Below, one piece after another: positions 40,024-63,953 of a DNA stretch of 64,000 nucleotides. Origin of the DNA: an uncultured Actinomycetota bacterium (GTDB lineage: Bacteria; Actinomycetota; Thermoleophilia; RBG-16-64-13). The position numbers were made by a program, and so were the translations under genes. A model generated the notes under the pieces. It was not told where the DNA came from. It saw nothing but the letters and a program-made list of their open reading frames with translations, and made no database searches. The stretch is taken from positions 144,048 through 208,047 of the forward strand of contig CAWCLH010000019.1 in assembly GCA_963796315.1 (NCBI GenBank), written 5' to 3'. Numbering within the stretch: the first letter of the stretch is position 1; the number at the start of each line of letters is the position of its first letter.

Positions 40024-40039
40024 CCCAAGGAGCCCGGCC

Positions 40040-42568: not shown

Positions 42569-42596
42569 ATACTGCCTGCACCCGTGGGGGTGCAGG
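42565..42596 (+). promoter_or_regulatory. TGaTATACT extended -10-like element followed by a 9-bp stem-loop, between the HemD and HemB coding parts
   Basis: TG at 42565-42566, TATACT at 42568-42573, and hairpin CCTGCACCC-gtgg-GGGTGCAGG at 42575-42596. Confidence 0.3.
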
Positions 42597-42652
42597 ACCC
42601 GGCCCCGTGCCCTTGTGAGCGGATGCGCAACATCTCTGGAGGCGTACAGACC

Positions 42653-43714: not shown

Positions 43715-43716
43715 TC

Positions 43717-44892
43717 ATGGGGTCTGAGTCTGAGATGATGCCTACCGGTCCCGAGCCGGTCGGCGAAAGCCGGCCCGCCGTCGAGTACCTGCCGAAGCTG
43801 ATCGCCTGGGAGGTGACCCGCTCCTGCAACCTCGCCTGCCGGCACTGCCGGGCTTCGGCGGAGAAGGGTCCCTACCCGGGAGAGCTCACCACCGAGCAGG
43901 GTAAGGCCCTGCTGGACGACATCGCCTCGTTCGCCAACCCGGTGCTGATCATGACCGGCGGCGACCCTTTGATGCGCGCGGACATCTGGGAGCTCGCCGA
44001 GCACGGCATCAACGAGGCCGGCCTGCGTGTGGTGATGTCTCCCAACGGCACCTTGGTCACCCCCGAGGTCGCCCGGAAGATGAAGCAGATCGGCATCCCC
44101 CGCATCTCCATCTCCATCGACTTCCCCACCGCCGAGCTGCACGACGCGTTCCGCGGCGTGCCGGGCGCCTTCGAGGGCGCCGTGCGCGGGGTGCGTCACG
44201 CCATCGAGGCCGGCGTGCAGGTCCAGATCAACGCCACCATCACCAAGTTGAACGTGGACTACCTGGACGAACTGCTCGCGCTCTCCGTGGAGCTGGGCGC
44301 AGTGGCCTTCCACCCGTTCCTGCTGGTCCCCACCGGTCGCGGGAAGGAACTGGGTCCCGAGGAGCTGCCGCCGGAAGACTACGAGCGCACCCTGAACTGG
44401 GTCTACGACCGCCAGAAGACCTCGGACATCTTCTTCAAGCCTACCGACGCTCCGCACTACCATCGCATCATGCGTCAGCGGGCCAAGGAGGACGGCACCG
44501 ACCTGTCCGAGCTGAAGATGCATCCCCACTCGCACGCCATGATGACCGGGGGCGTCGGTAAGGCCCGCGGCCACGGAGACATGGACTCCCACTCGAAGGG
44601 GTGCCTGGCCGGTACCGGCTTCTGCTTCATCAGCCACGTCGGGCGAGTCCAGCCGTGCGGCTACTTCGACGTGGAGGCAGGCGACGTCAAGACGCAGCCC
44701 TTCTCGGAGATCTGGCGCACGTCGCCCCTCTTCCAGGACCTGCGCGACGTCTCCCTGCTCAAGGGGAAATGTGGGTACTGTGAGTACCGCAGGGTCTGCG
44801 GCGGCTGCCGGGCCAGGGCCTACGAGGTCACCGGCGACTACCTGGCGGAGGAGCCGTACTGCATGTACGAGCCGGTCCGCTGCGCCGTCTGA
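43717..44892 (+). CDS. radical SAM/SPASM protein, AhbD/NirJ-like (candidate haem synthase of the sirohaem-dependent route)
   Basis: 391 aa. The CNLACRHC radical SAM site, GGDPLMR, and a C-terminal Cys-rich SPASM-like CGYCEYRRVCGGCRARAY. Last gene of the hem cluster. Confidence 0.6.
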   Translation: MGSESEMMPTGPEPVGESRPAVEYLPKLIAWEVTRSCNLACRHCRASAEKGPYPGELTTEQGKALLDDIASFANPVLIMTGGDPLMRADIWELAEHGINEAGLRVVMSPNGTLVTPEVARKMKQIGIPRISISIDFPTAELHDAFRGVPGAFEGAVRGVRHAIEAGVQVQINATITKLNVDYLDELLALSVELGAVAFHPFLLVPTGRGKELGPEELPPEDYERTLNWVYDRQKTSDIFFKPTDAPHYHRIMRQRAKEDGTDLSELKMHPHSHAMMTGGVGKARGHGDMDSHSKGCLAGTGFCFISHVGRVQPCGYFDVEAGDVKTQPFSEIWRTSPLFQDLRDVSLLKGKCGYCEYRRVCGGCRARAYEVTGDYLAEEPYCMYEPVRCAV

Positions 44893-48575: not shown

Positions 48576-48779
48576 AGCAAACTGCAGCTGGCTTGTGAAA
48601 AGTGGTGCTACGGACTCGGATGCGGGCCGCTGCGGTGCAGTACGAGGAAAGAGGAGACCCTGCCAGTGCGAGGGTCGAAGCCCGCGCGACACGCTCGGTG
48701 TCCCGGTCAGTAGACTCGCTGTCTTCCTTCCAGCGAACATGCGCGTCACGGACACGTCAGGCGAGTGGTGAAAGGCGGC

Positions 48780-49562
48780 ATGGCGAGCAAGCAACCCCTG
48801 CGGTTCAGGGTCTACGATGCCAGAGGACGCGCGGTCCGGGTCAAGAAGCGGTACCTCATCCTTCTTCTGGTCGGTCTGGCGACGGTCGGCGGAGCGTTCC
48901 TGTTCGTCCCGTTCTACGTGACGTCCACCCCGAGCTTCTGTTCCAACTGCCACGTGATGGACCCGTTCATCACGTCGTGGGAGCACAGCACTCACGCGAA
49001 GTTCCCGTGTGACAAATGCCATGTCAAACCGGGGGTCGTCAATCGCGTGGTCAACCAGTTCGCGGTGACCAAGAACGTCTATCTCGACGTCTTCGGCCAG
49101 GCCGAGATGCCGCACGAGATCCGGTCCGCCACGAATCAGAACTGCCTGCAATCGGGGTGCCACACCACGAACCGCATGGCGTCCACCTCGGGTGACCTCC
49201 TCATCCCGCACCGCGACCATGTGGAGATGCGGGGGCTGCAGTGCAAGGACTGCCACTTCAACGTGGTGCACACGCCGGAGGGAGGCACCCCGGTGCCGCC
49301 GATGGGCGTCTGCGCCATGTGCCACGACGGCAAGAAGGCGCCCAACGACTGTAAGACCTGTCACAAGAACCCACCCACGGCCTCCGAAGCGCACCCGAAC
49401 CTGGCCCTCGAGCAGCACGGAGCGCTGGCCAAGGGTCGCGAACGCGACTGCCTGCGCTGCCATCACGCCGACGCGTCCTTCTGCGAACGCACCGGCTGCC
49501 ACCCACAGGGGACGTTCCAGAAGCTGACGGATGAAGAGCGGATGCAGGAAAGGTTCCAGTAG
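48780..49562 (+). CDS. multihaem cytochrome c A: NapC/NirT/NrfH-like, N-terminal TM anchor, 6 CxxCH + 2 Cx4CH
   Basis: TM helix LILLLVGLATVGGAFLFVPFYV is followed by TSTPSFCSNCHVM...W..STHA..PCDKCH, the NapC/NirT hallmark. Variant sites are CLQSGCH and CERTGCH. An alternative GTG start lies at 48765. Confidence 0.85.
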   Translation: MASKQPLRFRVYDARGRAVRVKKRYLILLLVGLATVGGAFLFVPFYVTSTPSFCSNCHVMDPFITSWEHSTHAKFPCDKCHVKPGVVNRVVNQFAVTKNVYLDVFGQAEMPHEIRSATNQNCLQSGCHTTNRMASTSGDLLIPHRDHVEMRGLQCKDCHFNVVHTPEGGTPVPPMGVCAMCHDGKKAPNDCKTCHKNPPTASEAHPNLALEQHGALAKGRERDCLRCHHADASFCERTGCHPQGTFQKLTDEERMQERFQ

Positions 49563-49564
49563 TC

Positions 49565-50536
49565 GTGAAGTGGCCTCGTTTCCTCGCTATCCAGGACGAG
49601 TCGGGCCGCGCGGTCCGGGTCCGCTGGCGCTACCTTCTTCTGATCGCCGCGGCGCTGGTGGTGATCGGGGTGGCCGCCGTCTACCTGCCGGTCGCCATGA
49701 CCTCCACCCCCAGCTTCTGTCAGAACTGCCACCTCATGAAGGAGCCCACCGCCTTGTGGGAGGAGTCGACCCACGCCAACGTGAACTGCGTGCAGTGTCA
49801 CGTCGAGCCCGGCATCCTGAAGACGCTCGAGCACAAGGCCCTGTCGTACAAGGAGATCTACTTCAACTTCTTCGGCGAGGGCCGCATGCCGGAGGACATC
49901 GCGTTGCCGACCAACGCGGCCTGCCTCCAATGCCACAACCTGGACCGCACGGTATCCCCGGGCGGCGACATCAAGATCCCCCACCGGGAGCACGTGGAGA
50001 TGCGTAACCTCAAGTGCGCCGATTGCCACTTCAACGTGGTGCATACCCGGCGGGGCACTCCCGGTGGCGCGCCGCCCATGGACATCTGCTACATGTGCCA
50101 CGACGGCAAGCGGGCGCCGAACGCCTGCGACACTTGCCACACCACGCCGGTCAAGGACCTGCAGAAGCAGGGTCACCCGACCGACGCCCTCCAGAACCAC
50201 GGCAAGCTCGCCCAGGACCGGAGCGAAGACTGCAAGCGGTGCCACAGCGACCGCTCCCGCTTCTGTGAGAACTGCCACAACAAACCTCCCGCCAGCCACA
50301 AGGCGGCCACGTGGCGGTACACCCACAAGACCGTGGTCGAGACGAGCGGTCGCGCGACGTGCGAGGGTTGCCACAAACCCGAGTTCTGCCAGAAGTGCCA
50401 CAAGGTGCAGCATCCGCCCAACTGGAAGCAGGTGCATAAGGAGTTCGCGCAGGGTGGCGGCGATGCGTGCCAGGTATGCCATTCGCCCAACTTCTGTCAG
50501 GATTGTCACAAGGCCTCCGGAGTCACGACCAAGTAG
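49565..50536 (+). CDS. multihaem cytochrome c B: NapC/NirT-like paralog of A with C-terminal dihaem-repeat extension, 12 CxxCH
   Basis: TM anchor followed by TSTPSFCQNCHLM...STHANVNCVQCH. Collinear with A through CKRCH..FCENCH, then has two extra CxxCH-x4-CxxCH units. Confidence 0.88.
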   Translation: MKWPRFLAIQDESGRAVRVRWRYLLLIAAALVVIGVAAVYLPVAMTSTPSFCQNCHLMKEPTALWEESTHANVNCVQCHVEPGILKTLEHKALSYKEIYFNFFGEGRMPEDIALPTNAACLQCHNLDRTVSPGGDIKIPHREHVEMRNLKCADCHFNVVHTRRGTPGGAPPMDICYMCHDGKRAPNACDTCHTTPVKDLQKQGHPTDALQNHGKLAQDRSEDCKRCHSDRSRFCENCHNKPPASHKAATWRYTHKTVVETSGRATCEGCHKPEFCQKCHKVQHPPNWKQVHKEFAQGGGDACQVCHSPNFCQDCHKASGVTTK

Positions 50537-50549
50537 AGGGAGGATCGGC

Positions 50550-51515
50550 GTGCTTGGCAACAGGAAAAGTGCGGGCCCGCTAGCGAAAAGATTCACGCGC
50601 TCGACTGCGCGTGCGGTCGGGCTCGTGGTCGGCGCGCTCGTCGCCCTCCTCGTGCTGACCGGGACGGCCCTCGCGCAGGACGCGACCACCACCTCGGCCT
50701 CGACCACCACGACCACGGCCGCCGCCCCGGAGACGGACAACACGGCTCAGTGCCTGACCTGCCATCAGGAGACGTACCTGGGCAGCGTGAAGGACAGCAC
50801 GGGCACGAAGAACCTGCATATCGACGGCGCCGCCTACAAGGACTCCGCCCACGGGCTGCTCCCCTGCAACTCCTGCCACATCAACTTCAGCCACAATCCG
50901 CACCAGATGGTGAAGAACGCCGAGTTCTTCGCCAAGACCGCGGGAGAGGCGTGCCGCAATTGTCACGACGACCAGTTCGAGATGTACAAGCAGAGCTACC
51001 ACGGGAAGCTGACCAAGGGCGGCGTGGCGGACGGCACGGCGGCCCCCCTCTGCGTGGATTGCCACGGCGCGCACGCCGTGAAGAAGGTCAAGAGCACCGA
51101 GTACCGCCGGGAACTGCAGGATATCTGCGGAAAATGCCACGGTGGCCGCGAGTCCAGCTTCCTGGACACATACCATGGTAAGGCCATCACGCTCGGCCGC
51201 GACGCCGCCGCCACCTGCGTCGATTGCCACGGTTCCCACAGCATCCTGCCGGTCGCCGATCCCAAGTCCACTCTCTCCCAGGCGAACATCCTGCCAACGT
51301 GCCAGAAGTGTCACCCACAGGCTGAGAAGGGTTTCACCACCTTCCTGGTCCACGTCAAGCCCACGTCTCCCAAGGCCCCGCTGATCGTGTTCGTCGTGGC
51401 CATCTTCTACATCAGCATGATCGTGGCCGTGTTCGTCTTCGGGGGCACGCACACCCTGCTGTACATCTACCGCGGGCTGAAAGACGGGCTGTACTTCAAG
51501 AAGGGAGGGCACTGA
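50550..51515 (+). CDS. multihaem cytochrome c C: 7 CxxCH, signal peptide, Thr-rich linker, C-terminal TM helix
   Basis: GAGGGAGGA upstream of GTG 50550. Signal peptide AVGLVVGALVALLVLTGTALA-QD. Repeated (S/Y)xHG...CxxCHGxH pattern. C-terminal helix LIVFVVAIFYISMIVAVFVFGG. Confidence 0.85.
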   Translation: MLGNRKSAGPLAKRFTRSTARAVGLVVGALVALLVLTGTALAQDATTTSASTTTTTAAAPETDNTAQCLTCHQETYLGSVKDSTGTKNLHIDGAAYKDSAHGLLPCNSCHINFSHNPHQMVKNAEFFAKTAGEACRNCHDDQFEMYKQSYHGKLTKGGVADGTAAPLCVDCHGAHAVKKVKSTEYRRELQDICGKCHGGRESSFLDTYHGKAITLGRDAAATCVDCHGSHSILPVADPKSTLSQANILPTCQKCHPQAEKGFTTFLVHVKPTSPKAPLIVFVVAIFYISMIVAVFVFGGTHTLLYIYRGLKDGLYFKKGGH

Positions 51516-52393
51516 TGTCGACGGTCAGCGCCACCGCCACCAAGGTGGAGACCACGCACGCCGGAGTCGACACCCACCTGGTCTACCGCCGGTTCAGCGC
51601 CTTCCACCGGTTCAATCACTACCTGGTCATGATCAGCTTCTTCGGCCTGGTGCTGACCGGCATCCCGCTGAAGTTCAAGACCAGCTATTGGTCCGAGGTC
51701 ATCATGAACGCCGTAGGCGGCGTCTCGAACGCCGGCTTCGCCCACCGCACCTTCGCCGTGGTCAACATCCTGTACTTCGTGCTGGAAGGCGGCTACATGC
51801 TGTTGTACGTCGTGCGGAGGAGGGGCCCCGTCTTCGGTGCGGACTCCATCGTGCCCAGCCTGAAGGACTGGGAGGACCTCAAGGGCATGTTCAAGTGGTT
51901 CTTCGGTCGCGGCCCCAAGCCCCGCTTCAACCGGTTCACCTACTGGGAGAAGTTCGACTTCTGGGCTCTCTTCGCCGGGACCGTCTTGATCGGTGGCTCC
52001 GGCCTGATGATGTGGTTCCCCGAGCTCACCACGCGGTACCTGCCGGGGATCACGCTCAACGTGGCTTTGGTGCTCCACTCGAACGAGGCGTTCCTCGCCA
52101 CCGGAGTCATCTTCATCTTCGTGCACTTCTTCTCGGCGCACGGACGTCCCGAATCGTTCCCCGCCGACGAGGTCATCTTCTCGGGCTACCTTCCGCTGGA
52201 GCACTACATCGAGGACCGGCCGGCCGAGTACGTCAACCGGCTGAAGGCCGGCACCCTGGAGGAAGTGGTCACTACCCTTCCGGCGGAGGGTCGTCGCCGC
52301 GTGTTCAGCTGGGTGACGGCGGTGTTCACGGTCTTCGCCTTCCTGGCCTCGGCGTTCACCTTGCTCCTGATCATCTGGCCGCTCTTCTTCTAG
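51515..52393 (+). CDS. dihaem cytochrome b membrane subunit D (FdnI/HydC/PhsC-like)
   Basis: The start overlaps the stop of C (TGATG). RFSAFHRFNHYLVMISFFGLVLTG, FTYWEKFDFWALFAG and LHSNEAFLATGVIFIFVHFF carry the conserved His positions. Confidence 0.8.
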   Translation: MSTVSATATKVETTHAGVDTHLVYRRFSAFHRFNHYLVMISFFGLVLTGIPLKFKTSYWSEVIMNAVGGVSNAGFAHRTFAVVNILYFVLEGGYMLLYVVRRRGPVFGADSIVPSLKDWEDLKGMFKWFFGRGPKPRFNRFTYWEKFDFWALFAGTVLIGGSGLMMWFPELTTRYLPGITLNVALVLHSNEAFLATGVIFIFVHFFSAHGRPESFPADEVIFSGYLPLEHYIEDRPAEYVNRLKAGTLEEVVTTLPAEGRRRVFSWVTAVFTVFAFLASAFTLLLIIWPLFF

Positions 52394-52412
52394 GCGGAGC
52401 CGGCACGACGTT

Positions 52413-53444
52413 ATGAAAGACCGATTCCAGAGGCAGAAGGGGGATCTCATGGTGGGAACTTGCTCGGCCACGCGCGGCAAGACCGGGCATAGGCGTCATC
52501 GACATGAACGGGTGGCAGGGCTACTCGTCGTGACGCTGGCGCTGTTCCTGGCGATGACCGGCTCGGCGCTGGCCCTCGACCCGGAAGGCTGTCTGATCTG
52601 CCACGGCGATCCCAACTTCACCAATCCCAACCCCCGTGAGGGATATCCGACCTCCCTCTACGTCGACCCGGCCGCCTTCTCGAAGTCGGTCCACGGCAAG
52701 AACAAGTGTTCGAGCTGCCACAAGGGTTTCACCCTGTCGATGCCGCAGCATCAGACCGACCCCAGCAAGGACTACAAAGCGGTCGCCATCGAGGCCTGCG
52801 AGGGATGCCACAAGAAGGAGTTCATGGCCTACCAGACCTCGGCGCACGCGAAGATGTACTTCGGATCGGACACCGGTCCCATCTGCATCTCCTGCCACGG
52901 GTCGCACGAGATCAGGAAGGTGCAGCTGGGCCACGAGTCGGCGGAATTCAAGATGAGTATGGCCCGCGATTCCTGCGGCCGTTGCCATCAGGACAAGTTC
53001 GAGAAGGCGAAGAACGAGTTCCACTTCAAGGCGCTGTCCCTCGGCTATGCCCGGGCCGCCACGTGCTTCGACTGTCACGGTGCCCACGAGAACCTGGCGC
53101 TGAAGTCGGGTCAGGAAGAGACCGTAAAGCAGTGCCAGCAGTGCCATCCCGGCGCGACGAAGTCTTTCACCTACTTCCAGATGCACCTCGCCGACAACTT
53201 CGGCAACGCCTGGTGGGGCGTGCGTCTGGTCTACCGCTTCTTCAGCACGCTGCTCCTGGTGGTGCTGGTGACCGGCATCGCCTATACCACGGTCCACTTC
53301 CAGAAAGAGGTCCGCGAGGTCCTCGGCGTGTTCGGACGCGGAATGGGCCGGATGTTCGGCTACATCCGGGCGCTGGAAGACGAGTCGGTCCGCGAGAAAG
53401 TCAGCGACGAGCCGAGCCCGCAAACAGGACGCGCCGGGACGTGA
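52413..53444 (+). CDS. multihaem cytochrome c E: paralog of C, 7 CxxCH, signal peptide and C-terminal TM helix
   Basis: Signal peptide LLVVTLALFLAMTGSALA-LD, with the same SxHG...CxxCHGxH spacing as C. C-terminal helix FFSTLLLVVLVTGIAYTTV. An alternative start at 52449 has a better RBS. Confidence 0.85.
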   Translation: MKDRFQRQKGDLMVGTCSATRGKTGHRRHRHERVAGLLVVTLALFLAMTGSALALDPEGCLICHGDPNFTNPNPREGYPTSLYVDPAAFSKSVHGKNKCSSCHKGFTLSMPQHQTDPSKDYKAVAIEACEGCHKKEFMAYQTSAHAKMYFGSDTGPICISCHGSHEIRKVQLGHESAEFKMSMARDSCGRCHQDKFEKAKNEFHFKALSLGYARAATCFDCHGAHENLALKSGQEETVKQCQQCHPGATKSFTYFQMHLADNFGNAWWGVRLVYRFFSTLLLVVLVTGIAYTTVHFQKEVREVLGVFGRGMGRMFGYIRALEDESVREKVSDEPSPQTGRAGT

Positions 53445-53462
53445 TGAGAAGGGGGACAGCTG

Positions 53463-54227
53463 ATGGTCGACGTGACCCATTCCTTCGCGGAGCCGACCGC
53501 TGCCACGGCCGTGACGGTCGAGAAGCCGACGACCCACTACGTCCGCTTCTCCCCGTACCTCCGCCTCAGTCACTTCATCATGATGACCACCTTCATCGGG
53601 TGTGCGCTCACCGGCCCTCCGCTCAAGTACAGCTACGACGTGTGGGCCCAGACGCTGATGGGCTTCTGGGGCGGCGTGCAGAACGCGGGACTCATCCACC
53701 GCATCATGGCCGGGTTCATGATGGGCGACTTCTTCGTCCATGCCCTCTACCTGGGTTACTGGATCGTCATCAGGAAGGCCAAGGTATTCGGCCCGGACTC
53801 GATCATGTTCCGCAAGAAGGACCTGAAGGATTTCCTCGGGATGGTGCTGTGGTTCTTCGACCGAGGCCATCGGCCTCGGTTCGAACGGTTCACCTTCTGG
53901 GAGAAGTTCGACTGGTTCGCCGTCTTCTGGGGCATCGCGATGATCGGCACTTCGGGGTTCATGCTCTGGTTTCCGACGATCACCACCACCGTGCTCTCGG
54001 GCATCTTCCTCAACGTCGCCCGAGTCATTCACGGGGACGAGGCGATCCTGGCCATCGGCTGGATCCTGTTCGTCCATCTCTACAACTCCCATCTCCGGAT
54101 GAACGTCTTCCCGATGGACCCGGTCATCTTCACCGGGAAGATGCCGATCGAGCACCTCAAGCACGACAAGCGCGCCTGGTACGACCGGCTGGTGGCCGAA
54201 GGCAAGATCAGGCCGGAGGAGCAATGA
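53463..54227 (+). CDS. dihaem cytochrome b membrane subunit F (paralog of D)
   Basis: RFSPYLRLSHFIMMTTFIGCALTG, FTFWEKFDWFAVFWG and IHGDEAILAIGWILFVHLY. Confidence 0.8.
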   Translation: MVDVTHSFAEPTAATAVTVEKPTTHYVRFSPYLRLSHFIMMTTFIGCALTGPPLKYSYDVWAQTLMGFWGGVQNAGLIHRIMAGFMMGDFFVHALYLGYWIVIRKAKVFGPDSIMFRKKDLKDFLGMVLWFFDRGHRPRFERFTFWEKFDWFAVFWGIAMIGTSGFMLWFPTITTTVLSGIFLNVARVIHGDEAILAIGWILFVHLYNSHLRMNVFPMDPVIFTGKMPIEHLKHDKRAWYDRLVAEGKIRPEEQ

Positions 54228-55136
54228 TCCCGCGCCTCATCAGGCTCGGGCGCGCGAGGCTTCACGACCGGCCGGTGCGGCGAGGCTCGACGCTGGGCCC
54301 CGCTCGCGGTCCTCGTGGGTCTGGTGTTCGTCGCCCTCGTGCTGGCGGGCTGCAGCTCTGCCAACTCGCAGACGGGCACGACTGTCGACTTGACGAAGAA
54401 CGTCACCGCGGCCGAGCAGCAGACGCCCGGCGCCCCGTCCCCGAAGAATCCGTCGGAGTTCATCTCACTGTGTGCCAACTGCCACGACCGCCTGGACACG
54501 CCGCTCGCCTGGCGCCAAGAGCGCAAGCTGGTGTTCAACCACGCGGCTCATTTCGCGAAAGGTATCCGCTGCGTGGCCTGTCACCAGGAATTCCCCCATA
54601 AGCCGGGGAAGACCCTCCACGTCTCCGTCGAAACGTGCTTCATGTGCCACGGCGCCATGCACGGCGCGGAGGGCATTCTGGCGCCGACGAGTTGCGACAC
54701 CTGCCACACCCGCGACATCGCCACCATCACGCCCGATCACCAGCGGGCGGATTGGCTGTTGGTCGGCGGCTCCAAGCTGGCTTTGCACAGCGTCGAGGGC
54801 AAGCAGCGCCCGCTCTACTGCCGCATGTGTCACGAGCAGAGTTTCTGCAGCGACTGCCACAAGATCGAGATGCCGCATCCGGCCGGTTGGGTCACGTCCG
54901 GCCATCAACCGGTGGCCACTTCCGACCGGACCTCTTGCGTCCGGTGCCATCCCGAGAAGAACTTCTGCAACGACTGCCATCACAAGGCTCTGCCGAAGCT
55001 CGCCGATTGGAGCCAGCAGCACAAGGTGGTCGCGGTCAGCAAGGGTCCCGAGAGCTGCTACACGTGCCACAAGCCGCTGTTCTGCTCCGCCTGCCACGTG
55101 AAGGTGGGCCAGCACCGCGGAACGCTCGGGAAGTAG
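54224..55136 (+). CDS. multihaem lipoprotein cytochrome c G: 10 CxxCH; +1 frame change in the signal-peptide n-region (about 54270-54295) as assembled
   Basis: ATG 54224 overlaps the stop of F (ATGA) and reads MIPRLIRLGRARL.... The main frame continues RRWAPLAVLVGLVFVALVLAGC (lipobox LAGC). A c3/c7-like FNHAAH..CVACH module is followed by three CxxCH-x4-5-CxxCH units. The intact part alone is 54315-55136. Confidence 0.8.
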
Positions 55137-55169
55137 TCGCGCAGATCGTGGAGGGAAGGGGAGCGCACA

Positions 55170-56006
55170 GTGGATAGACGAGGACGCGCTACAGGCCTCG
55201 GTCTCACAGTCAGCCTGGTGCTGCTGCTCCTTCTGCTTGTCCTGGTGAGTGGGTGCGGAAGCGGACCCTCCGACGCCACGGCCGCGGCCACCACGACGAC
55301 CACGGGGTTGGTGGTACCCCTCAAGAACTCGACCTGCCTCTCGTGCCACAAGGACTTCGAGCAGGTGGTCGCACGAGAGGACCAGAAGAAGTTCTCGCAC
55401 TCGCTCCATCTGCAGCAGCGCCTGGACTGCGTCACCTGTCACGCGGATGTGGGTCATGCCGGGGGGGTGCTGCCGCCACAGTCGCTCTGCGACGACTGCC
55501 ACGGCCTGCCCATGCCGCATCCGGCTGATTTTCAGACGACACACGGCAAGATCGTGGTCAAGAACGGCGACGCGCTCTGCGCTCGTTGCCACAACGTCTA
55601 TCTTCACTGTCAGGAGTGTCACGGGCTGCAGATGCCTCACCCGGCCAACTGGAAGCAGAAGCACGGCACCATCGCTCAGCCGGAGATGGAGACCTGCGTC
55701 ACCTGCCACCCGAAGACCTTCTGTCTCTCGTGCCACCCGGTGGAGATGCCCCACCCGACCAACTGGACGGCGAAACACGGCCTGACCGTGAACGCCAAAG
55801 GGTCGGCCACCTGCACCATGTGTCACGAGCCGAAGGATTGCACCGCGTGCCACGGTCTTCCCATGCCACACCCTCAGGACTGGGGGACCGGACACCAGAG
55901 CGCAGCCGCCAAGGACCGTGAGGGATGCATGCTGTGCCACGACCGGAAGGACTGCGAGCAGTGCCACGCACTCCATAAGACCCACGTCCAGGGAGGAGGT
56001 GCCTGA
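55170..56006 (+). CDS. multihaem lipoprotein cytochrome c H: 11 CxxCH, four MPHP repeats
   Basis: Lipobox LVSGC, Thr-rich linker AAATTTTTG, and a FSHSLH..CVTCH module. It also has four dihaem units and four CH-x3-MPHP-x2-(W/F) tails. Confidence 0.88.
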   Translation: MDRRGRATGLGLTVSLVLLLLLLVLVSGCGSGPSDATAAATTTTTGLVVPLKNSTCLSCHKDFEQVVAREDQKKFSHSLHLQQRLDCVTCHADVGHAGGVLPPQSLCDDCHGLPMPHPADFQTTHGKIVVKNGDALCARCHNVYLHCQECHGLQMPHPANWKQKHGTIAQPEMETCVTCHPKTFCLSCHPVEMPHPTNWTAKHGLTVNAKGSATCTMCHEPKDCTACHGLPMPHPQDWGTGHQSAAAKDREGCMLCHDRKDCEQCHALHKTHVQGGGA

Positions 56007-56947
56007 TGACCTCCACGCCCAAGCGTCGGATCGCCGGGCTCATCGGCGCCGTCCTTCTCCTGGCGGTCCTGGTCCTCGTCCTGGGCATCGTCACGGGACG
56101 CGCCGACCTTCGGGCGGCCACCTCATCGACGAAGGGTCAGAAAGGGGACAGCCTGACCGCCCTCCCCACCGATACCGCCAACAGCAAGGCGGGCGCCCCG
56201 ACGGAATCCGGAGGGGAGCCGTTCCGCACCTGTATCGCCTGCCACCCGACGTACGAGCGCAAGCCCGACCCGACCGGCGACCTGATCTTCTCGCACCAGC
56301 GGCACACCCTGCAGGGCATAGCCTGCGCCACCTGCCACAAGCCACCGCTGGGCCACTTCGGCCAGCCCGCGCCGCTCATGACCACCTGCCTCTCCTGCCA
56401 CCAGGGAGACACAGCGCCGAACGACTGCAAGAAGTGCCACCGCAACTTGGAGGCGATCGCTCCGGGCTTGGGCAAGCAGGTGGTGCACCTGAAGCCGGAC
56501 GCCAAGACCCGTCGCACGTGCGAGAAGTGCCACGACGTCAACGTCTGGTGCGAACAGTGCCATGGAGTGGCCATGCCCCACCCGGTGGCCTGGAAGCAGA
56601 TCCACGGCGGCTACGCGCTGAAGGACCCGCAGGTCTGCGAGAAATGCCATCAGAGCAAGGACAAGACCTTCTGCGTGCGGTGCCACGGCGTGGAGATGCC
56701 GCACCCGGCGTACTGGTACTCCAACCATGGCGACATCGCCCGCACCAACAGCCAGACCTGCACGACCTGCCATCCGAACCGTTCGTTCTGCCAGGATTGT
56801 CACCATGCCGGCTTCTCGCCCACCGCGGCCTGGGCTTCCTCTCAGCACGGGCAGGCGGTAGCCAAGAAGGGGACCCAAGCGTGCTTCGTCTGCCACGACC
56901 AGACGTTCTGCGAGCGCTGCCATCCGACCGGCAAGTACAAGAAGTAG
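56006..56947 (+). CDS. multihaem cytochrome c I: N-terminal TM anchor, 12 CxxCH
   Basis: The start overlaps the stop of H (TGATG). TM helix LIGAVLLLAVLVLVLGIV, a FSHQRH..CATCH module, and four dihaem units, two of them with an MPHP tail. Confidence 0.88.
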   Translation: MTSTPKRRIAGLIGAVLLLAVLVLVLGIVTGRADLRAATSSTKGQKGDSLTALPTDTANSKAGAPTESGGEPFRTCIACHPTYERKPDPTGDLIFSHQRHTLQGIACATCHKPPLGHFGQPAPLMTTCLSCHQGDTAPNDCKKCHRNLEAIAPGLGKQVVHLKPDAKTRRTCEKCHDVNVWCEQCHGVAMPHPVAWKQIHGGYALKDPQVCEKCHQSKDKTFCVRCHGVEMPHPAYWYSNHGDIARTNSQTCTTCHPNRSFCQDCHHAGFSPTAAWASSQHGQAVAKKGTQACFVCHDQTFCERCHPTGKYKK

Positions 56948-57069
56948 ACCGACGGGCGGCAGAATGGGTGATCCGGCGGCCCGCCTGACGGTTTGCGACC
57001 GCCGAGAGAATCGTGGACAATCGACGCCGTCATCGAGGAGGGATTGGAATGAGGGAAGGAGGTGAGTTC

Positions 57070-58025
57070 ATGCTGCACAAGCGAGTGACGTTCCTAGGGC
57101 TGTTGCTCACGGTGGGCCTGATCGTCGCCCTGGTCGTAGCCCTAGGTGGCTGCACCTCGGCGAACGAGACGAGCACCACGACGGAGCAGTCCTCGACCAC
57201 CGCGCCGGGCGAGACCGTGACGACGACGCCGGCAGTCACGGGCACGACGACGGCGCCGACAGGCACGACGACGGCCAGGCGGCGGGGGAGAGACCACCAG
57301 TACTCCCGGCACCGGAGAGTCCGTCGCGCCCGTGTCGGACAACTTCAAGATCTGCACGCAGTGCCACAGCGATTTCAACGCTTTCCTGGCCACCAGTAAG
57401 GTGCTGACGAAGAACTTCAGCCACGCGGTGCACCTGAACAAGGGGTACAAGTGCGAGGACTGCCACGTGGTCCCCACGCATCAACCCGATCGGATCGTGC
57501 CACCCACCCATGCTGAAATGCTTCCAGTGTCACAGCCAGGAAGCCGGAGCCAAGGCACCCGGTGCGTGCGGTACCTGCCATCCTCCCAGCTTCCCGCTGG
57601 TGCCCGCCAACCATAATCAGCAGACGTGGTTGCCGGTGAACGTGACGACTCCGACCAAGACGGTGGATTCCAATCACTCAGCCGAAGCGAAGAAGAACCG
57701 GGACTACTGCGCGATGTGTCATGCGGCGAAGTTCTGCAACGACTGCCACAAGACCCAGATGCCGCACCCGGCTGACTGGCAGCAGGTCCACCCGCAGCAG
57801 GTGAAGTCGTCGGGATCCGCGAGCTGCACTCGTTGCCACCCGGCCAAGTACATCTGCGAAGACTGCCACCACACCGGTTACAAGCCCGGTACGCCGTGGA
57901 CGCAGCAGCATCCGCCCATCGTGAAGACGAACGGCGCCGACGGATGCTTCAAGTGCCATAACCCGCTGACCTGCGCCCACTGCCATGTCACGGGTCAGTT
58001 CAAGGACATCGCGCCGAGCGGCTAG
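57070..58025 (+). CDS. multihaem lipoprotein cytochrome c J: 10 CxxCH; split over three frames as assembled (changes near 57277-57289 and 57500-57509)
   Basis: - GGAGG lies 8 nt upstream of ATG 57070.
- Lipobox ALGGC and a long Thr-rich linker.
- Second frame: GETTSTPGTGESVAPVSDNFKICTQCH...FSHAVH..CEDCH.
- Third frame: MLKCFQCH...CGTCH..., followed by three dihaem units. Confidence 0.75.
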
Positions 58026-58166: not shown

Positions 58167-59159
58167 CTACTCCCCGCTGGCGATCGCCTTGTGCTGCTTC
58201 GCGCGGTAGAGGCTGGCGTCCGCCTCTTGGAGAAGCTGCTCTGTCTCCCGCCCATCCTCGGGGCAGGCGGCACAGCCGGCGCTGAGGCGCAGCGTCAGCA
58301 ACGAGGAGTCCACCTTGAGCTTGGTGGTCAGGAGGGACTCGGCGATCCGGTCGCCGACGACTCTGACCACGTCCTTCGACGTCTCCGGCATGAGGATGAT
58401 GAACTCGTCACCCCCGAAGCGCGCGCAGATGTCGACGTCCCGCACGTTCAGCCCCATCATGGTGGCCGCGTGGCGCAGCGCGAGATCCCCCGCGCTGTGG
58501 CCGTAGGTGTCGTTGATGCCCTTCAAGTTGTCCAGGTCGATCATCAGGAGGGCGAACGTGTGGCGGTACCGCTTGTAGAGCTCGATGTGCCGTTCCAGCT
58601 CCTGGAGCATGTAGCGGCGGTTGGAGAGGCCGGTCAGCGCGTCCGTGTGGGCCAGACGGTCGAGCTCGCTGCTGGCGGACTTGTAGTACGTCTCCATGGA
58701 GGACTGGGTCACGGCCTGCAGGCCCTGCCGCAGACGCATCACCAGAAGCAGGAGCTCTCGATCCTCTTTCCGCAGGCTCTCGATCAGCAGGCTCCAGATG
58801 GCGTCTTCGAGCGCGAGCATGCTCTGGGACAGGGTGATCAGACCCTGAGAGCCGCTGGCCTGGATCTCCCCCAGGCTGGCGGCTTGGTGGTAGAAGGATC
58901 CGCCCGGGGAGAACTCGGCGAGCGTGTCGTCGTCGACCAGGGCGTTCGCCAGCCCGCCCACGAGATCGACCGACAGCCGGATGCTCTCCTGGGTGGGAAA
59001 ACGCTCGAGCGTCCCCAGATCCTCGATCTGCGCGATAATGCGAGCCAGCCAGCTCTTGGTGATGCGGAGACGGTGCTCTTCCAGGACCCGGCGTCCCTTC
59101 AGGAAGAGGGGCGAAGCGAGGGGGGAGGTCTCCTCATCGCGGATCGCGTTATCGCTCAC
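58167..59159 (-). CDS. diguanylate cyclase (GGDEF domain) with N-terminal helical sensor region
   Basis: 330 aa. DALTGLSNRRYM...FALLMIDLDNLKGINDTYGHSAGDLAL...ICARFGGDEFIILMPE. Confidence 0.88.
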   Translation of the reverse strand: MSDNAIRDEETSPLASPLFLKGRRVLEEHRLRITKSWLARIIAQIEDLGTLERFPTQESIRLSVDLVGGLANALVDDDTLAEFSPGGSFYHQAASLGEIQASGSQGLITLSQSMLALEDAIWSLLIESLRKEDRELLLLVMRLRQGLQAVTQSSMETYYKSASSELDRLAHTDALTGLSNRRYMLQELERHIELYKRYRHTFALLMIDLDNLKGINDTYGHSAGDLALRHAATMMGLNVRDVDICARFGGDEFIILMPETSKDVVRVVGDRIAESLLTTKLKVDSSLLTLRLSAGCAACPEDGRETEQLLQEADASLYRAKQHKAIASGE

Positions 59160-59233: not shown

Positions 59234-59431
59234 ATGAGAATCCTTCATGTGAACAAACGGTACCCTCCACACGTCGGCGGGGTGGAGGTCCACGTGCGAG
59301 ATCTGGCTCGCGCCCAGTCGCGCTTCGACGGTATCACGGTGGAGGTCCTGACGGTATCGGAGGGCGCTCGTGGGCGGGGACCGGCGGACCACGCGGCCCT
59401 CGTCAAGACGTGGGCGGGGCCGTGCCGATAG
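59234..59431 (+). pseudogene. 5' remnant of a GT4 glycosyltransferase gene (about 65 codons, then stop)
   Basis: MRILHVNKRYPPHVGGVEVHVRDLARAQ is a typical GT4 N-terminus. The ORF stops at 59431, no continuation was found in other frames, and the next gene starts at 59503. Confidence 0.5.
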
Positions 59432-60367: not shown

Positions 60368-61517
60368 GTGGGGCCGTCCTCTGGCGCGGTCAGCGGCGGC
60401 TCGGGCGAGGGACCTTTGCGGGTCGGATTTGACGCACGGACCATAGAATCAAGTGGGATCGGGACCTACTCCCGCAATCTCCTGCTTCACTTCGCCGAGA
60501 CGGACGTCGACCTGGTCGTCTTCTGCCAGGACTCCAACCGTCGCTTGGTGCCCGCGGGGAAGAACTTCTCCTTCGTCACCGCCAACCTGAGCCCGCGTTC
60601 TCGCAGCAGCAGCGGCGCGTTCGGCTCGGTCGTCCGCGATGCCCAGGTCGACCTGCTGCACGTCCCCAGCCACCTGGGCCCGACGGGCGCGCAGGTGCCG
60701 TTGGTGGCCACCATCCATGACGTCATCCCGCTGATCTACCCCCGAAGCATCCGCAACCCGCTGGAGCGGAGGCGATACCGGCGGCAGGTCGAGCAGACGG
60801 TGAACGAAGCGTTCAGGGTGATCACCCCGTCGCAGATCTCGAAGTCGACCCTCACCGCGTACGCGGGGGTGGCGCCGGGCAAGGTGCGCGTGATCCACAA
60901 CGGCGTCTCCCGGACCTTCCGGCCCGTCGAGGAGGACGCCGTGCTGGAGGAGGTGCGGCACCGCTACGGCCTGCCCGAGCGGTTCGCGCTGTGGATCGGT
61001 GAGTTCCGCCCCCAGAAGAACCTGGAATTCCTGCTGGCTGCCTGGGCGTGACGTCGGCCGCTCGTCTTCGCAGGCACCGGCCCTTGTCCTCGCCGGCACC
61101 CAGGATGGGGAGTTCCGCAAGATCCGGCGGGAAGTCACCCGCCGCGGTCTCGATGGTCGGGTGATGTTTCCGGGCTTCATCAAGGAAGTCGACCTGGCTG
61201 CGGTGTACTCGGCGGCATCGGTCTTCGTGTTCCCGTCGCTCTACGAGGGCTTCGGCCTGCCGCCACTCGAAGCCATGGCCTGCGGTACCCCCTGCGTCGT
61301 CTCCAACTCCTCGTCGCTCCCCGAGGTGACGGGCCGGGCGGCGATGCTCTTCAACCCCACGTCGGTGGAGCAGTTCGTGGAGTGCATGACCCGGGTGATG
61401 GAGGACGAGGACCTCTATGAGAAGCTGCGCCGCGAAGGTCTGCGGCAGTCGGCGCTCTTCAGCTGGAACAAGGCGGCCGCGCAGACGCTCGAGGTGTACC
61501 GAGCCGCACTGGCGTGA
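60368..61517 (+). CDS. GT4 family glycosyltransferase; +1 frame change near 61040-61050 as assembled
   Basis: N-domain: [23 protein letters not shown]...ATIHDVIPL. The C-domain is in the next frame: [10 protein letters not shown]...[35 protein letters not shown]. Confidence 0.8.
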
Positions 61518-62871
61518 ACAGGACCACGTGGCGGATCGTGAGCCTGGCCGCCGACGCAGTCGCCGTCAACGTCGCCATCGTCCTCGCATTCATCATCCGC
61601 TTCGGGTGGCCCATCCCAGCGTTCAACTTCGGCGCGTACCAGCGCGTGATCGTGCCGCTGACGGTCGTCCAGATCCTGGTCTTCTTCGTCGTCGACCTGT
61701 ACGACCCGATGGCGAGCCGCTCCGGTCCGGAACTCCTGGGGACGGTGGCGAAGGGGGTCTTCCTGGGGACCTTCGTGTTGGTGACCCTCAGCTTCTTCCT
61801 TCGCGCGTTCGCCTTCCCCCGGACGGTCATCCCGCTTGTCTTCGTGGCCCAAGTAGTGTTGGTGTGGGGCTGGCGGCGGATCGCGGCCAAGCTGTTCCAC
61901 GTCCACTGGCCGGAACGCCGCGTGGTCCTGGTCGGGTCGTCCCGCGACGCCCTGGCGGTGGCCGAGCGACTGGGAGAGCTGTCGTCCTGGGGGTACCGCC
62001 TGGTGGGCGTCGTCTGCGACGACTGCGACGTGCCGCGGTGGGCTGCGGACGGGGTCGAGTGGCTCCCGTCTCGGGCGGAGCTGCCGGAGCACCTGGAGCG
62101 GCTCTCGCCGGACCAGATCATCGTCACCACGCCTTCCCAGCACCGCGAGATCCTGGAGGAGATCACCCTCAGCCATCGTTTCGAGGGAGATATCTTCGTC
62201 ATCCCCCAGGTCTACGAGATCCACCTGGGGGAGGTGAACTTCTCGCTGCTGCAGGATGTTCCGCTGCTTCGGTTGACCCGTCCCGCCCGTCCGGCGTGGC
62301 AGCAGGGAGTCAAGGTGGTCGTGGAGCGGGTGATGGCCGCACTGCTCCTGGTGCTTCTGTCGCCGCTGCTGTTGGTGATAGCTCTGGGCGTGCGCCTGAC
62401 CTCTGGGGCACCGGTCTTCTACGCGCAGGAGAGGCTGGGAAAGGACTTCCGTTCGTTCCGGTTGTTCAAGTTCCGGACGATGGTGCCCGACGCGGAGGAG
62501 GACGGCCCGGCCCTCGCCAGGGAGGACGACCCGCGGGTGACCCCATCGGGCGGCTGCTGCGTTCCGCCCGGCTGGACGAGCTCCCGCAGTTCCTCAACGT
62601 CGCTCGCGGTGAGATGAGCTTCGTGGGGCCGCGCCCGGAGCGCGGTACTTTCGTGGAGCGGTTCCTGCGGGAGGACCCGCTCTACGAGGAGCGGTTCCGA
62701 GTCAGGCCGGGTATCACCGGCTTGGCTCAGGTGAGCGGTTCGTACGGGACCACGCCGGCGGTCAAGCTCCGGTTCGATCTCATGTACGTCTACCATCAGT
62801 CGCTCGCGCTCGACCTGCGCATCCTTGCGCGGACGATGCAGGTCGTGCTGACCGGCCGAGGGTCCAGGTAG
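61514..62871 (+). CDS. polyprenyl-phosphate hexose-1-phosphate transferase (WbaP/EpsB-type priming sugar transferase); -1 frame change at the C run 62541-62544
   Basis: N-terminal TM bundle followed by a Rossmann-like VVLVGSSRDA. Catalytic domain: LLLVIALGVRLTSGAPVFYAQERLGKDFRSFRLFKFRTM. The other frame then reads IGRLLRSARLDELPQFLNVARGEMSFVGPRP. Confidence 0.85.
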
Positions 62872-62950: not shown

Positions 62951-63953
62951 TTGGTCTCCGAAGAGTCTCTCGTCGGCGGCTGTCTGCTCCTGCTGGGCGT
63001 CGTCCTGGGTCTGTCCCTGGTCGGGGTACTCGTCCTCTTCTCCGCCACCCGAGGTCCGTCCGAGACGGGCAAAACGCCGCCCGCCTCCGGTCCCCCCGGT
63101 GCCCCGGTCTTCGCCTTCGCCGTGGAGGCCACCGGCAGCGGGTCGTTCCGCCCGCGAGGCGGGGTGCTGGTGGGCGACCGGCTCTTCGTCGCGGACAGCG
63201 AAGGAGCTCGCCTGGCGGTGGTCGACATGACTCGCGGGGAAGACGCCACCTTCGAGTTCATCCCCATCGCGTTCGACCGGCCCGGCGTCGGCTTTCCCGC
63301 CCGGCCCCAACCGGTCGGCGTGGCCGTGATCCGCGACGGCTCCCTCCTGGTCACCGATCCGGCCAACGGACGCCTCTGGAAGATCACCCAGGACGGGACC
63401 CTGTTGGGAGAGTTCCCCGATCAGGCGGAGCGCGAGCGTTCCGAGCTTCGCAAACCGGTCGGGATCGCGGTGCGGGGCGATCAAGTCTACGTCACCGACG
63501 TCGCCGATCAACGGATCAAGGTCTACTCCGACACCGGCCGTTTCCTGCGGACGCTGGGTGGTCCCGGGTACCTGCCCGGACAGTTGGCGTATCCGAACGG
63601 GGTCGCCGTGGACAAGCCAGGGGCGCGTCTGGGTGGCCGACAGCAACAACCGGCGCGTCCAGCTGCTCGATACCGACGGTCAGCCACTTCGCGTCATCGA
63701 AAGGGTCCAGCCCACCGTCCCCTTCGACCTGCCGCGTTCGGTCGCGCTCGATCGGTACGGCCGGATCCACGTGGTGGACACCTTCGGCCAGGCCGTTCAC
63801 GTCTTCGACCCCGACGGCCGCCTGGTGCTGAGCTACGGACAGCGCTCCGGTACACCCGACCGCGTCCGGCTACCGGAGGGGGTGGCCATCGATGCAGATC
63901 ACCTGGTGGTCAGCGACACCGGCAATCATCGCGTCCTCGTCTACACGTACTAG
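62951..63953 (+). CDS. membrane-anchored NHL-repeat (six-bladed beta-propeller) protein; +1 frame change at 63617-63618
   Basis: - TTG 62951; TM helix LVGGCLLLLGVVLGLSLVGVLVLF.
- NHL-like repeats: RPRGGVLVGDRLFVADS, PVGVAVIRDGSLLVTDPANGRLWKI, PVGIAVRGDQVYVTDVADQRIKVY.
- The next frame then reads GRVWVADSNNRRVQLLD...HLVVSDTGNHRVLVYTY. Confidence 0.75.

Follow-up and report, generated by a model that had tools for sequence, protein, structure and literature searches.

The window analysed here, a 64,000-nucleotide stretch of DNA from an uncultured Thermoleophilia-like bacterium, carries a respiratory gene cluster in which five multihaem cytochromes have outer halves composed of a repeat. Every open reading frame of at least 60 amino acids with at least two CxxCH lies between 48.7 and 58.0 kb, and together these frames hold 75 canonical motifs. 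The entire cluster from A to J is syntenic in a Thermoleophilia MAG. It consists of the following genes:

A, 48765..49562, + strand: membrane cytochrome of the NapC/NirT type; its motifs are 6 CxxCH and 2 variants, among them CLRCH-x6-CERTGCH
B, 49565..50536, + strand: NapC/NirT-type N-terminus (TM helix and 6 haems) fused to three dihaem units starting at 50231, 50360 and 50468; 12 CxxCH in total
C, 50550..51515, + strand: 7-haem c-type cytochrome (7 CxxCH) with a presumed GTG start at 50550, a signal peptide and a His-bearing C-terminal TM helix (CbcA-like)
D, 51515..52393, + strand: membrane b-type cytochrome (FdnI/cytochrome b561-like), partner of C
E, 52413..53444, + strand: paralog of C, likewise a 7-haem cytochrome (7 CxxCH) with a TM helix at its C-terminus
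F, 53463..54227, + strand: second membrane b-type cytochrome, paralog of D
G, 54315..55136, + strand: 10-haem lipoprotein of uncertain start, with lipobox LAGC, a c7-like N-terminal module and three units starting at 54819, 54936 (CHH type) and 55056 (terminal)
H, 55170..56006, + strand: 11-haem lipoprotein with lipobox VSGC, a Thr-rich linker, a c7-like N-terminal module, a leading half-unit from Cys107 (nt 55488) and four units from 55578, 55695, 55812 and 55926
I, 56006..56947, + strand: 12-haem cytochrome with an N-terminal TM anchor and four units starting at 56519, 56636, 56759 (CHH type) and 56882 (terminal)
J, 57070..58025, + strand: gene of a 10-haem lipoprotein in three reading frames (57070-57282, 57284-57508 and 57510-58025), with three units starting at 57708, 57825 (CHH type) and 57945 (terminal)

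Only the heads of A and B can be placed in the NapC/NirT family by profile (Pfam PF03264 Cytochrom_NNT, E 6.8e-13 and 9.2e-18, respectively, both over profile positions 7-170 of 174)—a placement that does not extend to the repeat. Scores with the NrfH, NapC and TorC equivalog models all stay far under the cutoffs. A shares 47% identity with the ortholog region of B, E 33% with the ortholog of C, and F 45% with the ortholog of D. For D, Pfam Ni_hydr_CYTB scores above its cutoff (32.2 versus 30.1 bits) and TIGR01583 under its own (E 1.6e-9); for F, Ni_hydr_CYTB remains under the cutoff (E 0.0016). The CbcBA complex of Geobacter sulfurreducens combines a seven-haem c-type cytochrome bearing a C-terminal TM anchor with a dihaem b-type membrane subunit (bioRxiv 10.1101/2021.04.15.440034). 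C/D and E/F share this layout, which is a likeness in architecture that concerns the context genes and not the repeat. The cluster is read as encoding four putative quinol dehydrogenases: two of NapC/NirT type (A and B) and two CbcBA-like pairs (C/D and E/F).

G to J are membrane-tethered—G, H and J by a lipobox with Thr-rich linkers, which in J extend for about 45 residues past the lipobox, and I by its TM anchor. In all four, the repeat array comes after a c7-like module of three or four haems, and the N-terminal CxxCH...F(S/N)HxxH...CxxCH pattern that an earlier note on this DNA had pointed out is indeed common to them. Two of the genes bear frame problems. In G, the ATG at 54224 is not in frame with the haem-binding frame, and the first in-frame start is the GTG at 54315, with which the signal peptide would have only 13 residues. 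J is not a single open reading frame; its ortholog in a related genome (L001) is an intact gene of 302 amino acids, whose tblastn match spans all three frames in the window. J and perhaps also the 5' end of G are frame-broken, most likely through assembly indels.

The repeat unit consists of CxxCH, a spacer of 4-8 residues, a second CxxCH, a short His-bearing loop (MPHP, PxSH or CHH), a W, F or Y as the aromatic residue, three further residues and a final His, mostly with Gly right after it. The earlier note had counted 17 close CxxCH pairs with 4-7 residues in between, and we arrive at the same number: three in B (at residues 223, 266 and 302), three in G (169, 208 and 248), four in H (137, 176, 215 and 253), four in I (172, 211, 252 and 293) and three in J. 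Its further descriptions of the motif could likewise be reproduced, namely the variant pair in A (residues 229-246), the eight copies of MPHP (one in G, four in H, two in I and one in J), the degenerate tails QHPPNW, ALPKLADW, GFSPTAAW and GYKPGTPW, and the aromatic-type residue ahead of the second Cys (F, W or H in 13 of the 17 pairs). Its period of 42-48 residues has to be corrected to a unit length of 36-43 residues, mostly 39-41, and the range it gave, 54224-58025, takes in G to J alone, whereas B sits at 49565-50536. A tail-less last unit, which it assigned to each protein, is found in B; the last unit of H is not fully tail-less and carries two invariant His, H269 and H272.

To assess the repeat beyond the window, a profile built from 12 window units was searched against 1.84 billion proteins. 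It matches 1,106 clusters (50% identity) at E <= 1e-3, 397 at E <= 1e-10 and 52 at E <= 1e-30. Matched stretches reach 15-22 per protein, and the number of units, counted in 263 proteins, ranges from 2 to about 15; high-copy examples are P0121 (725 amino acids, 32 CxxCH) and P0122 (542 amino acids, 24 CxxCH). Both CxxCH are kept across 1,166 unit matches, and the carriers span genomes of Actinomycetota, Bacillota and Armatimonadota. The repeat is, hence, a genuine and conserved protein module of about 39 residues and a distinct family with variable copy number, in line with its earlier description as modular and tandemly expandable.

A chance or low-complexity artefact, or a recent duplication of DNA, can be given practically no probability. 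In a six-frame translation of all 64 kb (127,996 residues), MPHP occurs eight times, every time in the frames of G to J, so that it is confined, together with the CxxCH-rich reading frames, to one cluster; a search for tandem repeats at the DNA level in the window found none, the identity from unit to unit is only 21-50%, and the family is kept across the three phyla.

The repeat might be merely a divergent form of a described domain—Paired_CXXCH_1 or TIGR01905, or the c7-type modules—with nothing new apart from annotation. Paired_CXXCH_1 (PF09699) resembles the unit in its length of about 41 residues, its two CxxCH and its multiple copies in multihaem cytochromes. At the protein level, B (33.0 bits) and H (32.8 bits) score above its cutoff of 20.6 bits, and in a shifted register, going from the second CxxCH to the first of the next unit, 14 of 16 window segments match at E <= 1, with 2.4e-4 as the best value. 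However, G (14.4 bits), I (18.6 bits) and J (19.0 bits) fall under this cutoff, as does the single segment with a score shown (14.9 bits). In the best stretches, only positions 9-39 of the 41-position profile are covered, and H shows one such stretch despite its four units. These partial matches in a different register are no better than the generic ones: all 16 segments match Cytochrome_C7 equally weakly, 8 match NapC/NirT, and hhalign gives like probabilities between any two types of CxxCH...His...CxxCH segments (94%, 88% and 94%), which marks the resemblance to Paired_CXXCH_1 as generic. Four repeat-rich relatives with 22-32 haems (P0121, P0122, P0124 and P0126) lack a Paired_CXXCH_1 match, and the unit profile reaches 178 bits on an H ortholog, whereas H itself scores about 33 bits with the Pfam model. 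TIGR01905, the doubled CXXCH domain (cutoff 25.2 bits), leaves B, G, H, I and J unmatched at E <= 0.1; it matches C alone, with 15.8 bits. We regard this explanation as unlikely.

The c7- and c3-type models PF14522 (Cytochrome_C7) and PF14537 (Cytochrom_c3_2) score above their cutoffs at the protein level, with 31-47 bits. Their best stretches fall on the N-terminal module in H (74-142) and I (94-176) and on the repeat region in G (216-253), where none passes singly; the best E-value of a single repeat segment is 1.3e-4. The N-terminal module, thus, appears c7/c3-like, and the repeat not demonstrably so. The model for c7-type triheme 'nanowire' cytochromes, TIGR04257 (cutoff 40 bits), has no match in G to J and reaches only 16.4 bits in A and 17.3 bits in C, and the MtrA/DmsE decahaem model TIGR03508 (cutoff 192.2 bits) stays at 43 bits for the best of B, C, E, H and I. 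The view that no named family fits is borne out, as Pfam and NCBIfam models match neither end-to-end nor strongly but only in a weak and generic manner.

The His after the Trp had been proposed as a likely distal ligand. Its conservation is consistent with this role: column 29 is His in 1,096 of 1,096 aligned residues, and 1,097 of the 1,108 residues aligned in column 25 are aromatic. A second obligatory His, which the first reading of the sequence overlooked, precedes the aromatic residue and is located within MPHP. In its MPHP, PxSH or CHH form, it is kept in 972 of 973 complete units: 872 have it in the MPHP column, 58 in a shifted position, 41 carry CHH instead, one bears both CHH and the shifted form, and one has none. 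The window units that lack the MPHP His are G2, I3 and J2, and exactly these three have CHH. Since the family sequences are mutually related, such conservation counts, as well as the Fisher p-value of 8e-35, overstate independence.

Every complete unit (972 of 973), thus, bears two CxxCH and two further His and qualifies by its sequence as a bis-His multihaem c-type module. As the four His required by two bis-His haems are supplied, each unit should bind two haems via these four His. Conservation suggests that both sites—only 4 residues apart—are occupied by haem; the pairing of each His with a given haem and the geometry of the chain are presumptive. For whole proteins, the His present can be compared with the His required for all-bis-His ligation: G has 22 of 20 needed, H 25 of 22, J 20 of 20, B 23 of 24 and I 22 of 24. 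B and I fall short, and, hence, some of their haems must have another ligand or be five-coordinate. In 32 sequences of H orthologs, 24 His never vary, nor do any of the 22 haem-binding Cys, and G28 and C29 of the lipobox are kept in at least 90%.

No solved structure resembles the repeat in PDB searches by sequence and by profile or in Foldseek searches with haem-less models. A phmmer search of H against the PDB matches only the N-terminal module of ActA (E 1.6e-5 to 9e-4). Among solved structures, only this pentahaem subunit of Alternative Complex III (PDB 6lod, 8k9e and 6f0k) is similar to H in sequence; the match comprises the CxxCH...FSHxxH...CxxCH module at H residues ~63-115 and stops short of the dihaem repeat. 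The unit profile finds nothing in the PDB better than E 0.17. Foldseek with two models (pLDDT 66 and 83) gives no match at E <= 0.001, which has to be read with the models being haem-less and Foldseek being weak on folds of low secondary structure. The AF2 model of H has a pLDDT of 83 overall and of 80-93 in the repeats. The kind of protein is already known—a multihaem c-type cytochrome with an expected role, and not a new kind of system. New is an undescribed repeat variant without a well-fitting family model or a similar solved structure. The principle has a counterpart in the c7-type triheme 'nanowire' cytochromes of Geobacter (GSU1996 type), where a small module in tandem creates a long intramolecular haem chain; their module is triheme with about 75 residues, whereas the unit in the window is dihaem with about 39.

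The homolog P0039 is built like B, in that a NapC/NirT head is followed by tandem CxxCH-x4-CxxCH-MPHP-W-x3-HG units (459 amino acids, 19 CxxCH and one variant motif; 8 units compared with three in B). We equate it with Ga0395992_02_135863_137242 of Carboxydothermus ferrireducens, a thermophile of the Bacillota, because the length of the gene (1,380 nt) and the number of haems (20) agree, not via accession. The Carboxydothermus protein is described as a constitutively produced 'putative Q-oxidase', encoded adjoining the secreted cytochrome SmhA of this Fe(III)-reducing and electrode-active organism, in a study that counts haem motifs and proposes quinol oxidation while leaving the repeat itself undescribed (PMC7829351). 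ImdcA and PdcA of Thermincola are decahaem proteins that resemble the window proteins in a NapC/NirT-like N-terminal haem motif (PMC7911101). Their C-terminal halves bear 1-2 degenerate half-units, CxxCH...LPPSH...W...H (supplement of PMC7911101), which differ from the window units by scoring 16-17 bits per half-unit against the window profile and by lacking both MPHP and a clean tandem array. Purified, each contains ten low-spin six-coordinate haems; their proposed role is electron transport from the membrane in the direction of the cell wall, and their homology to known structures was found too low for modelling (PMC7911101).

The best reading, and in our judgement a likely one, is that of a bis-His haem chain that carries menaquinol electrons outward from the membrane via G to J. 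At about 20-24 residues per haem, the polypeptide would do little beyond wrapping the haems, and, hence, tandem units should build up a haem chain that conducts electrons. The menaquinol pool would feed electrons in through the putative quinol dehydrogenase modules A, B, C/D and E/F, with the array in B fused to the NapC/NirT-type head. G to J would then relay them out from the cytoplasmic membrane, in what we infer to be the direction of flow, to an acceptor within the cell envelope or outside it, in the manner of extracellular electron transfer; the terminal partner is likewise a presumed one. That a thick wall is crossed remains an assumption, as one preprint describes Thermoleophilia as Gram-negative and the envelope type of the class is not settled.

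Alternatively, the arrays might not lead out of the cell but act within the envelope, storing electrons as a capacitor or relaying them from the quinol dehydrogenases to soluble-substrate reductases encoded elsewhere. G, H, I and J are all membrane-tethered rather than secreted, the cluster encodes no surface-exposed cytochrome and no obvious terminal reductase, and a branched internal network would be in keeping with four parallel paralogs next to four putative quinol dehydrogenase modules. On the other hand, the long Thr-rich linkers after the lipobox hint at a reach away from the membrane. A second hint against this role is dissimilatory Fe(III) reduction in the closest cultured organisms that carry the repeat—Carboxydothermus with clear units and Thermincola with only degenerate half-units (PMC7829351, PMC7911101). 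We consider a role inside the envelope rather unlikely. The chain could also run in reverse, with Fe(II), a cathode, a syntrophic partner or another external donor feeding electrons into the quinone pool. NapC/NirT-type and CbcBA-type modules as well as bis-His multihaem chains are reversible in principle, and the sequence sets no direction. However, an iron-oxidation marker such as Cyc2 was not noticed in a non-exhaustive look at the window, and the characterised relatives work in the reduction of external acceptors (PMC7829351). A reversed flow, thus, appears quite improbable.

For the outward chain, a more far-reaching version can be formulated, which we hold only tentatively and at less than even confidence: the unit might represent a structurally new minimal dihaem fold with about 20 residues per haem—a length-tunable intramolecular haem wire that could provide the main envelope-crossing route in Thermoleophilia and other Actinomycetota and in some Bacillota and Armatimonadota. 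If true, this would be among the densest haem packings in proteins, with a wire lengthened simply by the addition of units, from 3-4 per protein in the window to as many as about 14, with 32 haems, in relatives. How respiratory electrons pass the envelope of Gram-positive and actinobacterial cells is poorly understood, and according to one survey, searches may be biased against electron-transfer proteins of Gram-positives (bioRxiv 10.1101/2022.03.26.485925). The repeat provides a specific signature to search with, covering about 1,100 protein clusters whose present labels say no more than 'cytochrome c3 family' or 'hypothetical', together with a prediction of exactly which four His per unit should bind iron. 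As a compact modular scaffold, it might also be of use for structural work and for engineered protein wires.

The dihaem unit that recurs in cytochromes B, G, H, I, and J is a real, undescribed repeat variant inside a known protein class. Each unit consists of two CxxCH motifs, a loop that provides a His (MPHP, PxSH, or CHH type), an aromatic residue and, four residues on, a further His. It thus forms a conserved module of two haem-attachment motifs and two spare His residues in variable copy number—joined to a quinol dehydrogenase head in B and to membrane-tethered c7-like modules in G–J.

The ten genes A–J occupy 48.7 to 58.0 kb of the window, all on the + strand and in head-to-tail order. 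They contain 75 canonical CxxCH motifs, and all ORFs of at least 60 aa with at least two CxxCH in the whole window are confined to this cluster.

Genes of the multihaem cytochrome cluster
A: 48765–49562, + strand, NapC/NirT-type cytochrome (domain search)
B: 49565–50536, + strand, NapC/NirT-type head followed by three repeat units
C: about 50550–51515, + strand, seven CxxCH and a C-terminal TM helix
D: 51515–52393, + strand, membrane b-type cytochrome of the FdnI/b561 kind
E: 52413–53444, + strand, seven CxxCH and a C-terminal TM helix
F: 53463–54227, + strand, membrane b-type cytochrome of the FdnI/b561 kind
G: 54315–55136, + strand, 10 CxxCH
H: 55170–56006, + strand, 11 CxxCH
I: 56006–56947, + strand, 12 CxxCH
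J: 57070–58025, + strand, 10 CxxCH

The cluster comprises four putative quinol-oxidising modules: A, B, and the CbcBA-like pairs C/D and E/F. These pairs are a duplication (50550–54227) of a seven-haem cytochrome followed by an FdnI/b561-like cytochrome b, and the C-terminal TM helices of C and E each bear a His. Their architecture matches that of Geobacter CbcBA (bioRxiv 10.1101/2021.04.15.440034), a likeness in layout. Lipoprotein signals stand at the start of G (LAGC), H (VSGC), and J (GGC), each followed by a Thr-rich linker, and I is anchored by an N-terminal TM segment. The lipobox Gly and Cys are kept in at least 90% of the H orthologs.

A haem biosynthesis block (38125–44892) lies just upstream of the cluster, and a GGDEF diguanylate cyclase gene (58167–59159, − strand) directly downstream on the opposite strand, a position it also holds in both related contigs.

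Genes of the haem biosynthesis block
38125–40023: glutamyl-tRNA reductase
40088–43714: read-through ORF of 1,208 codons with porphobilinogen deaminase (N-terminal half only), a uroporphyrinogen methylase/synthase fusion, and ALA dehydratase
43717–44892: radical SAM/SPASM protein

Two gene models had to be revised relative to the earlier note. J runs through three frames (57070–57282, 57284–57508, and 57510–58025), with breaks near 57283 and at about 57500–57510 in the sequence ccacccaccc, and its ortholog in a Thermoleophilia MAG is an intact gene of 302 aa. The ATG at 54224 overlaps the stop codon of F (ATGA) and lies outside the haem-binding frame of G. In that frame, no ATG, GTG, or TTG was found upstream of 54315, which leaves a signal peptide of 13 residues; a further indel or a noncanonical start is likely at this 5′ end. 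Relative to their orthologs in a related Thermoleophilia genome (L001), the genes for a GT4 glycosyltransferase, a Bac_transf sugar transferase, and an NHL-repeat protein (60416–61514, 61514–62868, and 63107–63950) each switch frame once, and another glycosyltransferase (59234–59374) is represented by its first 47 residues only. Since at least three unrelated neighbour genes are frame-broken and hemC upstream of the cluster is garbled as well, assembly indels are the likeliest cause of the frame breaks in J and probably in G, and the window probably carries such errors.

Within the repeat proteins, recounting reproduced the 17 CxxCH pairs with 4 to 7 residues of spacing (three in B, three in G, four in H, four in I, and three in J) and the eight MPHP motifs (one in G, four in H, two in I, and one in J); a six-frame translation of the whole window contains eight MPHP, every one in the G–J frames of the cluster. 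The variant pair in A, the degenerate tails, and the N-terminal CxxCH...F(S/N)HxxH...CxxCH module common to G–J were likewise found as described, while the claimed period of 42 to 48 residues gave way to a measured 36 to 43.

A unit profile was built from an alignment of 12 internal window units, in which both CxxCH are invariant, as are the Trp and the His four positions on from it. Run on 263 family proteins, this profile yielded 1,166 unit matches. At the column of the His that follows the aromatic residue, all 1,096 aligned residues are His; W, F, or Y occupies the aromatic position in 1,097 of 1,108, and the MPHP His was found in 1,000 of the unit matches. The state of this second His was classified for complete units.

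State of the second His among 973 complete units
His at the MPHP column: 872
Shifted His, PxSH type: 58
CHH only: 41
CHH and shifted His: 1
None: 1

From these counts, each unit offers four His for two haems, with the second distal His drawn from three alternative sources. In the window, CxxCHH is present in each unit that lacks the MPHP His—the second unit of G, the third of I, and the second of J. CxxCHH motifs whose second His ligates a neighbouring haem are known in tetrahaem cytochrome c3. Whole-protein His counts mostly fit bis-His ligation, with a shortfall of one His in B and two in I. In the AF2 model, each CxxCH forms a helical turn, MPHP lies in a loop, and a helix bearing the His starts from the Trp. 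In H, the candidate ligands include H157, H195, and H234 of the MPHP type and H165, H203, and H242 of the W-x3-H type.

A pair-less tail stands ahead of each array (H 55488–55577, G 54693–54818, J 57567–57707, and B 50126–50230): the same PH...W...H tail comes after the final CxxCH of the N-terminal module, and the last pair of each protein bears none. Judged from sequence, a tail may serve the pair that follows it rather than its own. Counted by hand over B and G–J, the preceding-tail register leaves four haems unmatched versus seven in the own-tail register, and it also accounts for the presence of a tail before the first pair and the absence of one after the last. Such His counting is not decisive for the assignment of distal ligands and is kept as a lead only.

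In a mechanistic reading, all sites would bind haem with the spare His as distal ligands, and the units would form one continuous chain that takes electrons outward from menaquinol.

No Pfam or NCBIfam family matches the unit strongly or over its full length: the matches obtained (Cytochrome_C7, Cytochrom_c3_2, MtrC/MtrF domain, and Paired_CXXCH_1) are weak and generic. For Paired_CXXCH_1, only B and H score above the cutoff, through matches that are shifted in register and cover part of the profile; on single segments it performs no better than c7 or NapC/NirT, and it gave no match in four repeat-rich relatives. Pfam NNT positions 36 to 75 match 8 of 16 shifted window segments, and a separate hhalign comparison gave a probability of 94%, to be read against controls of 88% for the c7-like N-terminal module and 94% for NNT versus c7. 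An origin of the unit from the NapC/NirT segment between haem 1 and haem 2 was dropped, as this test has no discriminating power; hhalign scores are about equal for any two CxxCH...His...CxxCH segment types.

A PDB sequence search with H matched in the N-terminal module only, to ActA of Alternative Complex III, and the best PDB E-value for the unit profile was 0.17. A first AF2 run with 32 orthologs reached a mean pLDDT of 66, and an alignment of 124 sequences raised this to 83; Foldseek returned no PDB match at E ≤ 0.001 for the latter model and none for the former. In the literature, no paper joining MPHP with multihaem cytochromes was found. The interest of the unit is moderate and lies chiefly in its use as a marker for searches and in the structural work it invites.

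Searched against 1.84 billion proteins, the unit profile delineates a distinct family of 1,106 clusters at 50% identity, 397 of them at E ≤ 1e-10, with up to 15 to 22 matched stretches in some proteins. A separate word-index search, weak for so short a query, matched only two proteins with a shifted profile of 46 residues. Copy number ranges from 2 to 15 across the 263 family proteins. One homolog (P0121), with 32 CxxCH in 725 aa, has about 14 units behind a NapC/NirT head, and another (P0122) is a lipoprotein with 24 CxxCH in 542 aa. Along the array of the latter, MPHP-type and RKPxSH-type units alternate, a sequence pattern that points to a four-haem super-repeat in some relatives.

The window units are 21 to 50% identical to one another, and no DNA-level tandem repeats were found in 49.5 to 58.1 kb; the arrays are therefore old. 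The CHH-type units without MPHP His are penultimate in G (54936–55055), I (56759–56881), and J (57825–57944), which suggests whole-gene duplication after array formation.

A Thermoleophilia MAG (JAOSKU010000001.1) shares synteny with the window over all of A–J, the GGDEF gene downstream, and the glycosyltransferase genes, at protein identities of 55 to 86%, which places the source of the window in a related actinobacterium; the G+C content of the window is about 65 to 70%. A genome scan by ortholog alignment, biased to proteins with CHPVxMPHP or G[LV]QMPHPxxW, recovered 62 loci—most in Thermoleophilia, Gaiellales, and other Actinomycetota MAGs, and the remainder in Coriobacteriia, Aquicultor, Armatimonadota, and Bacillota including Carboxydothermus islandicus. 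A further unit-carrying homolog (P0039) is apparently the "putative Q-oxidase" with 20 haems from Carboxydothermus ferrireducens, an iron reducer; this oxidase is constitutively produced, and its gene adjoins SmhA (PMC7829351). Thermincola ImdcA and PdcA bear degenerate half-units only (PMC7911101). A few kilobases upstream of the cluster, L001 (1–2030) encodes a 428-aa NapC/NirT cytochrome together with Rieske and cytochrome b genes; the corresponding region in the window holds NlpC/P60 and PIN-TPR genes instead.
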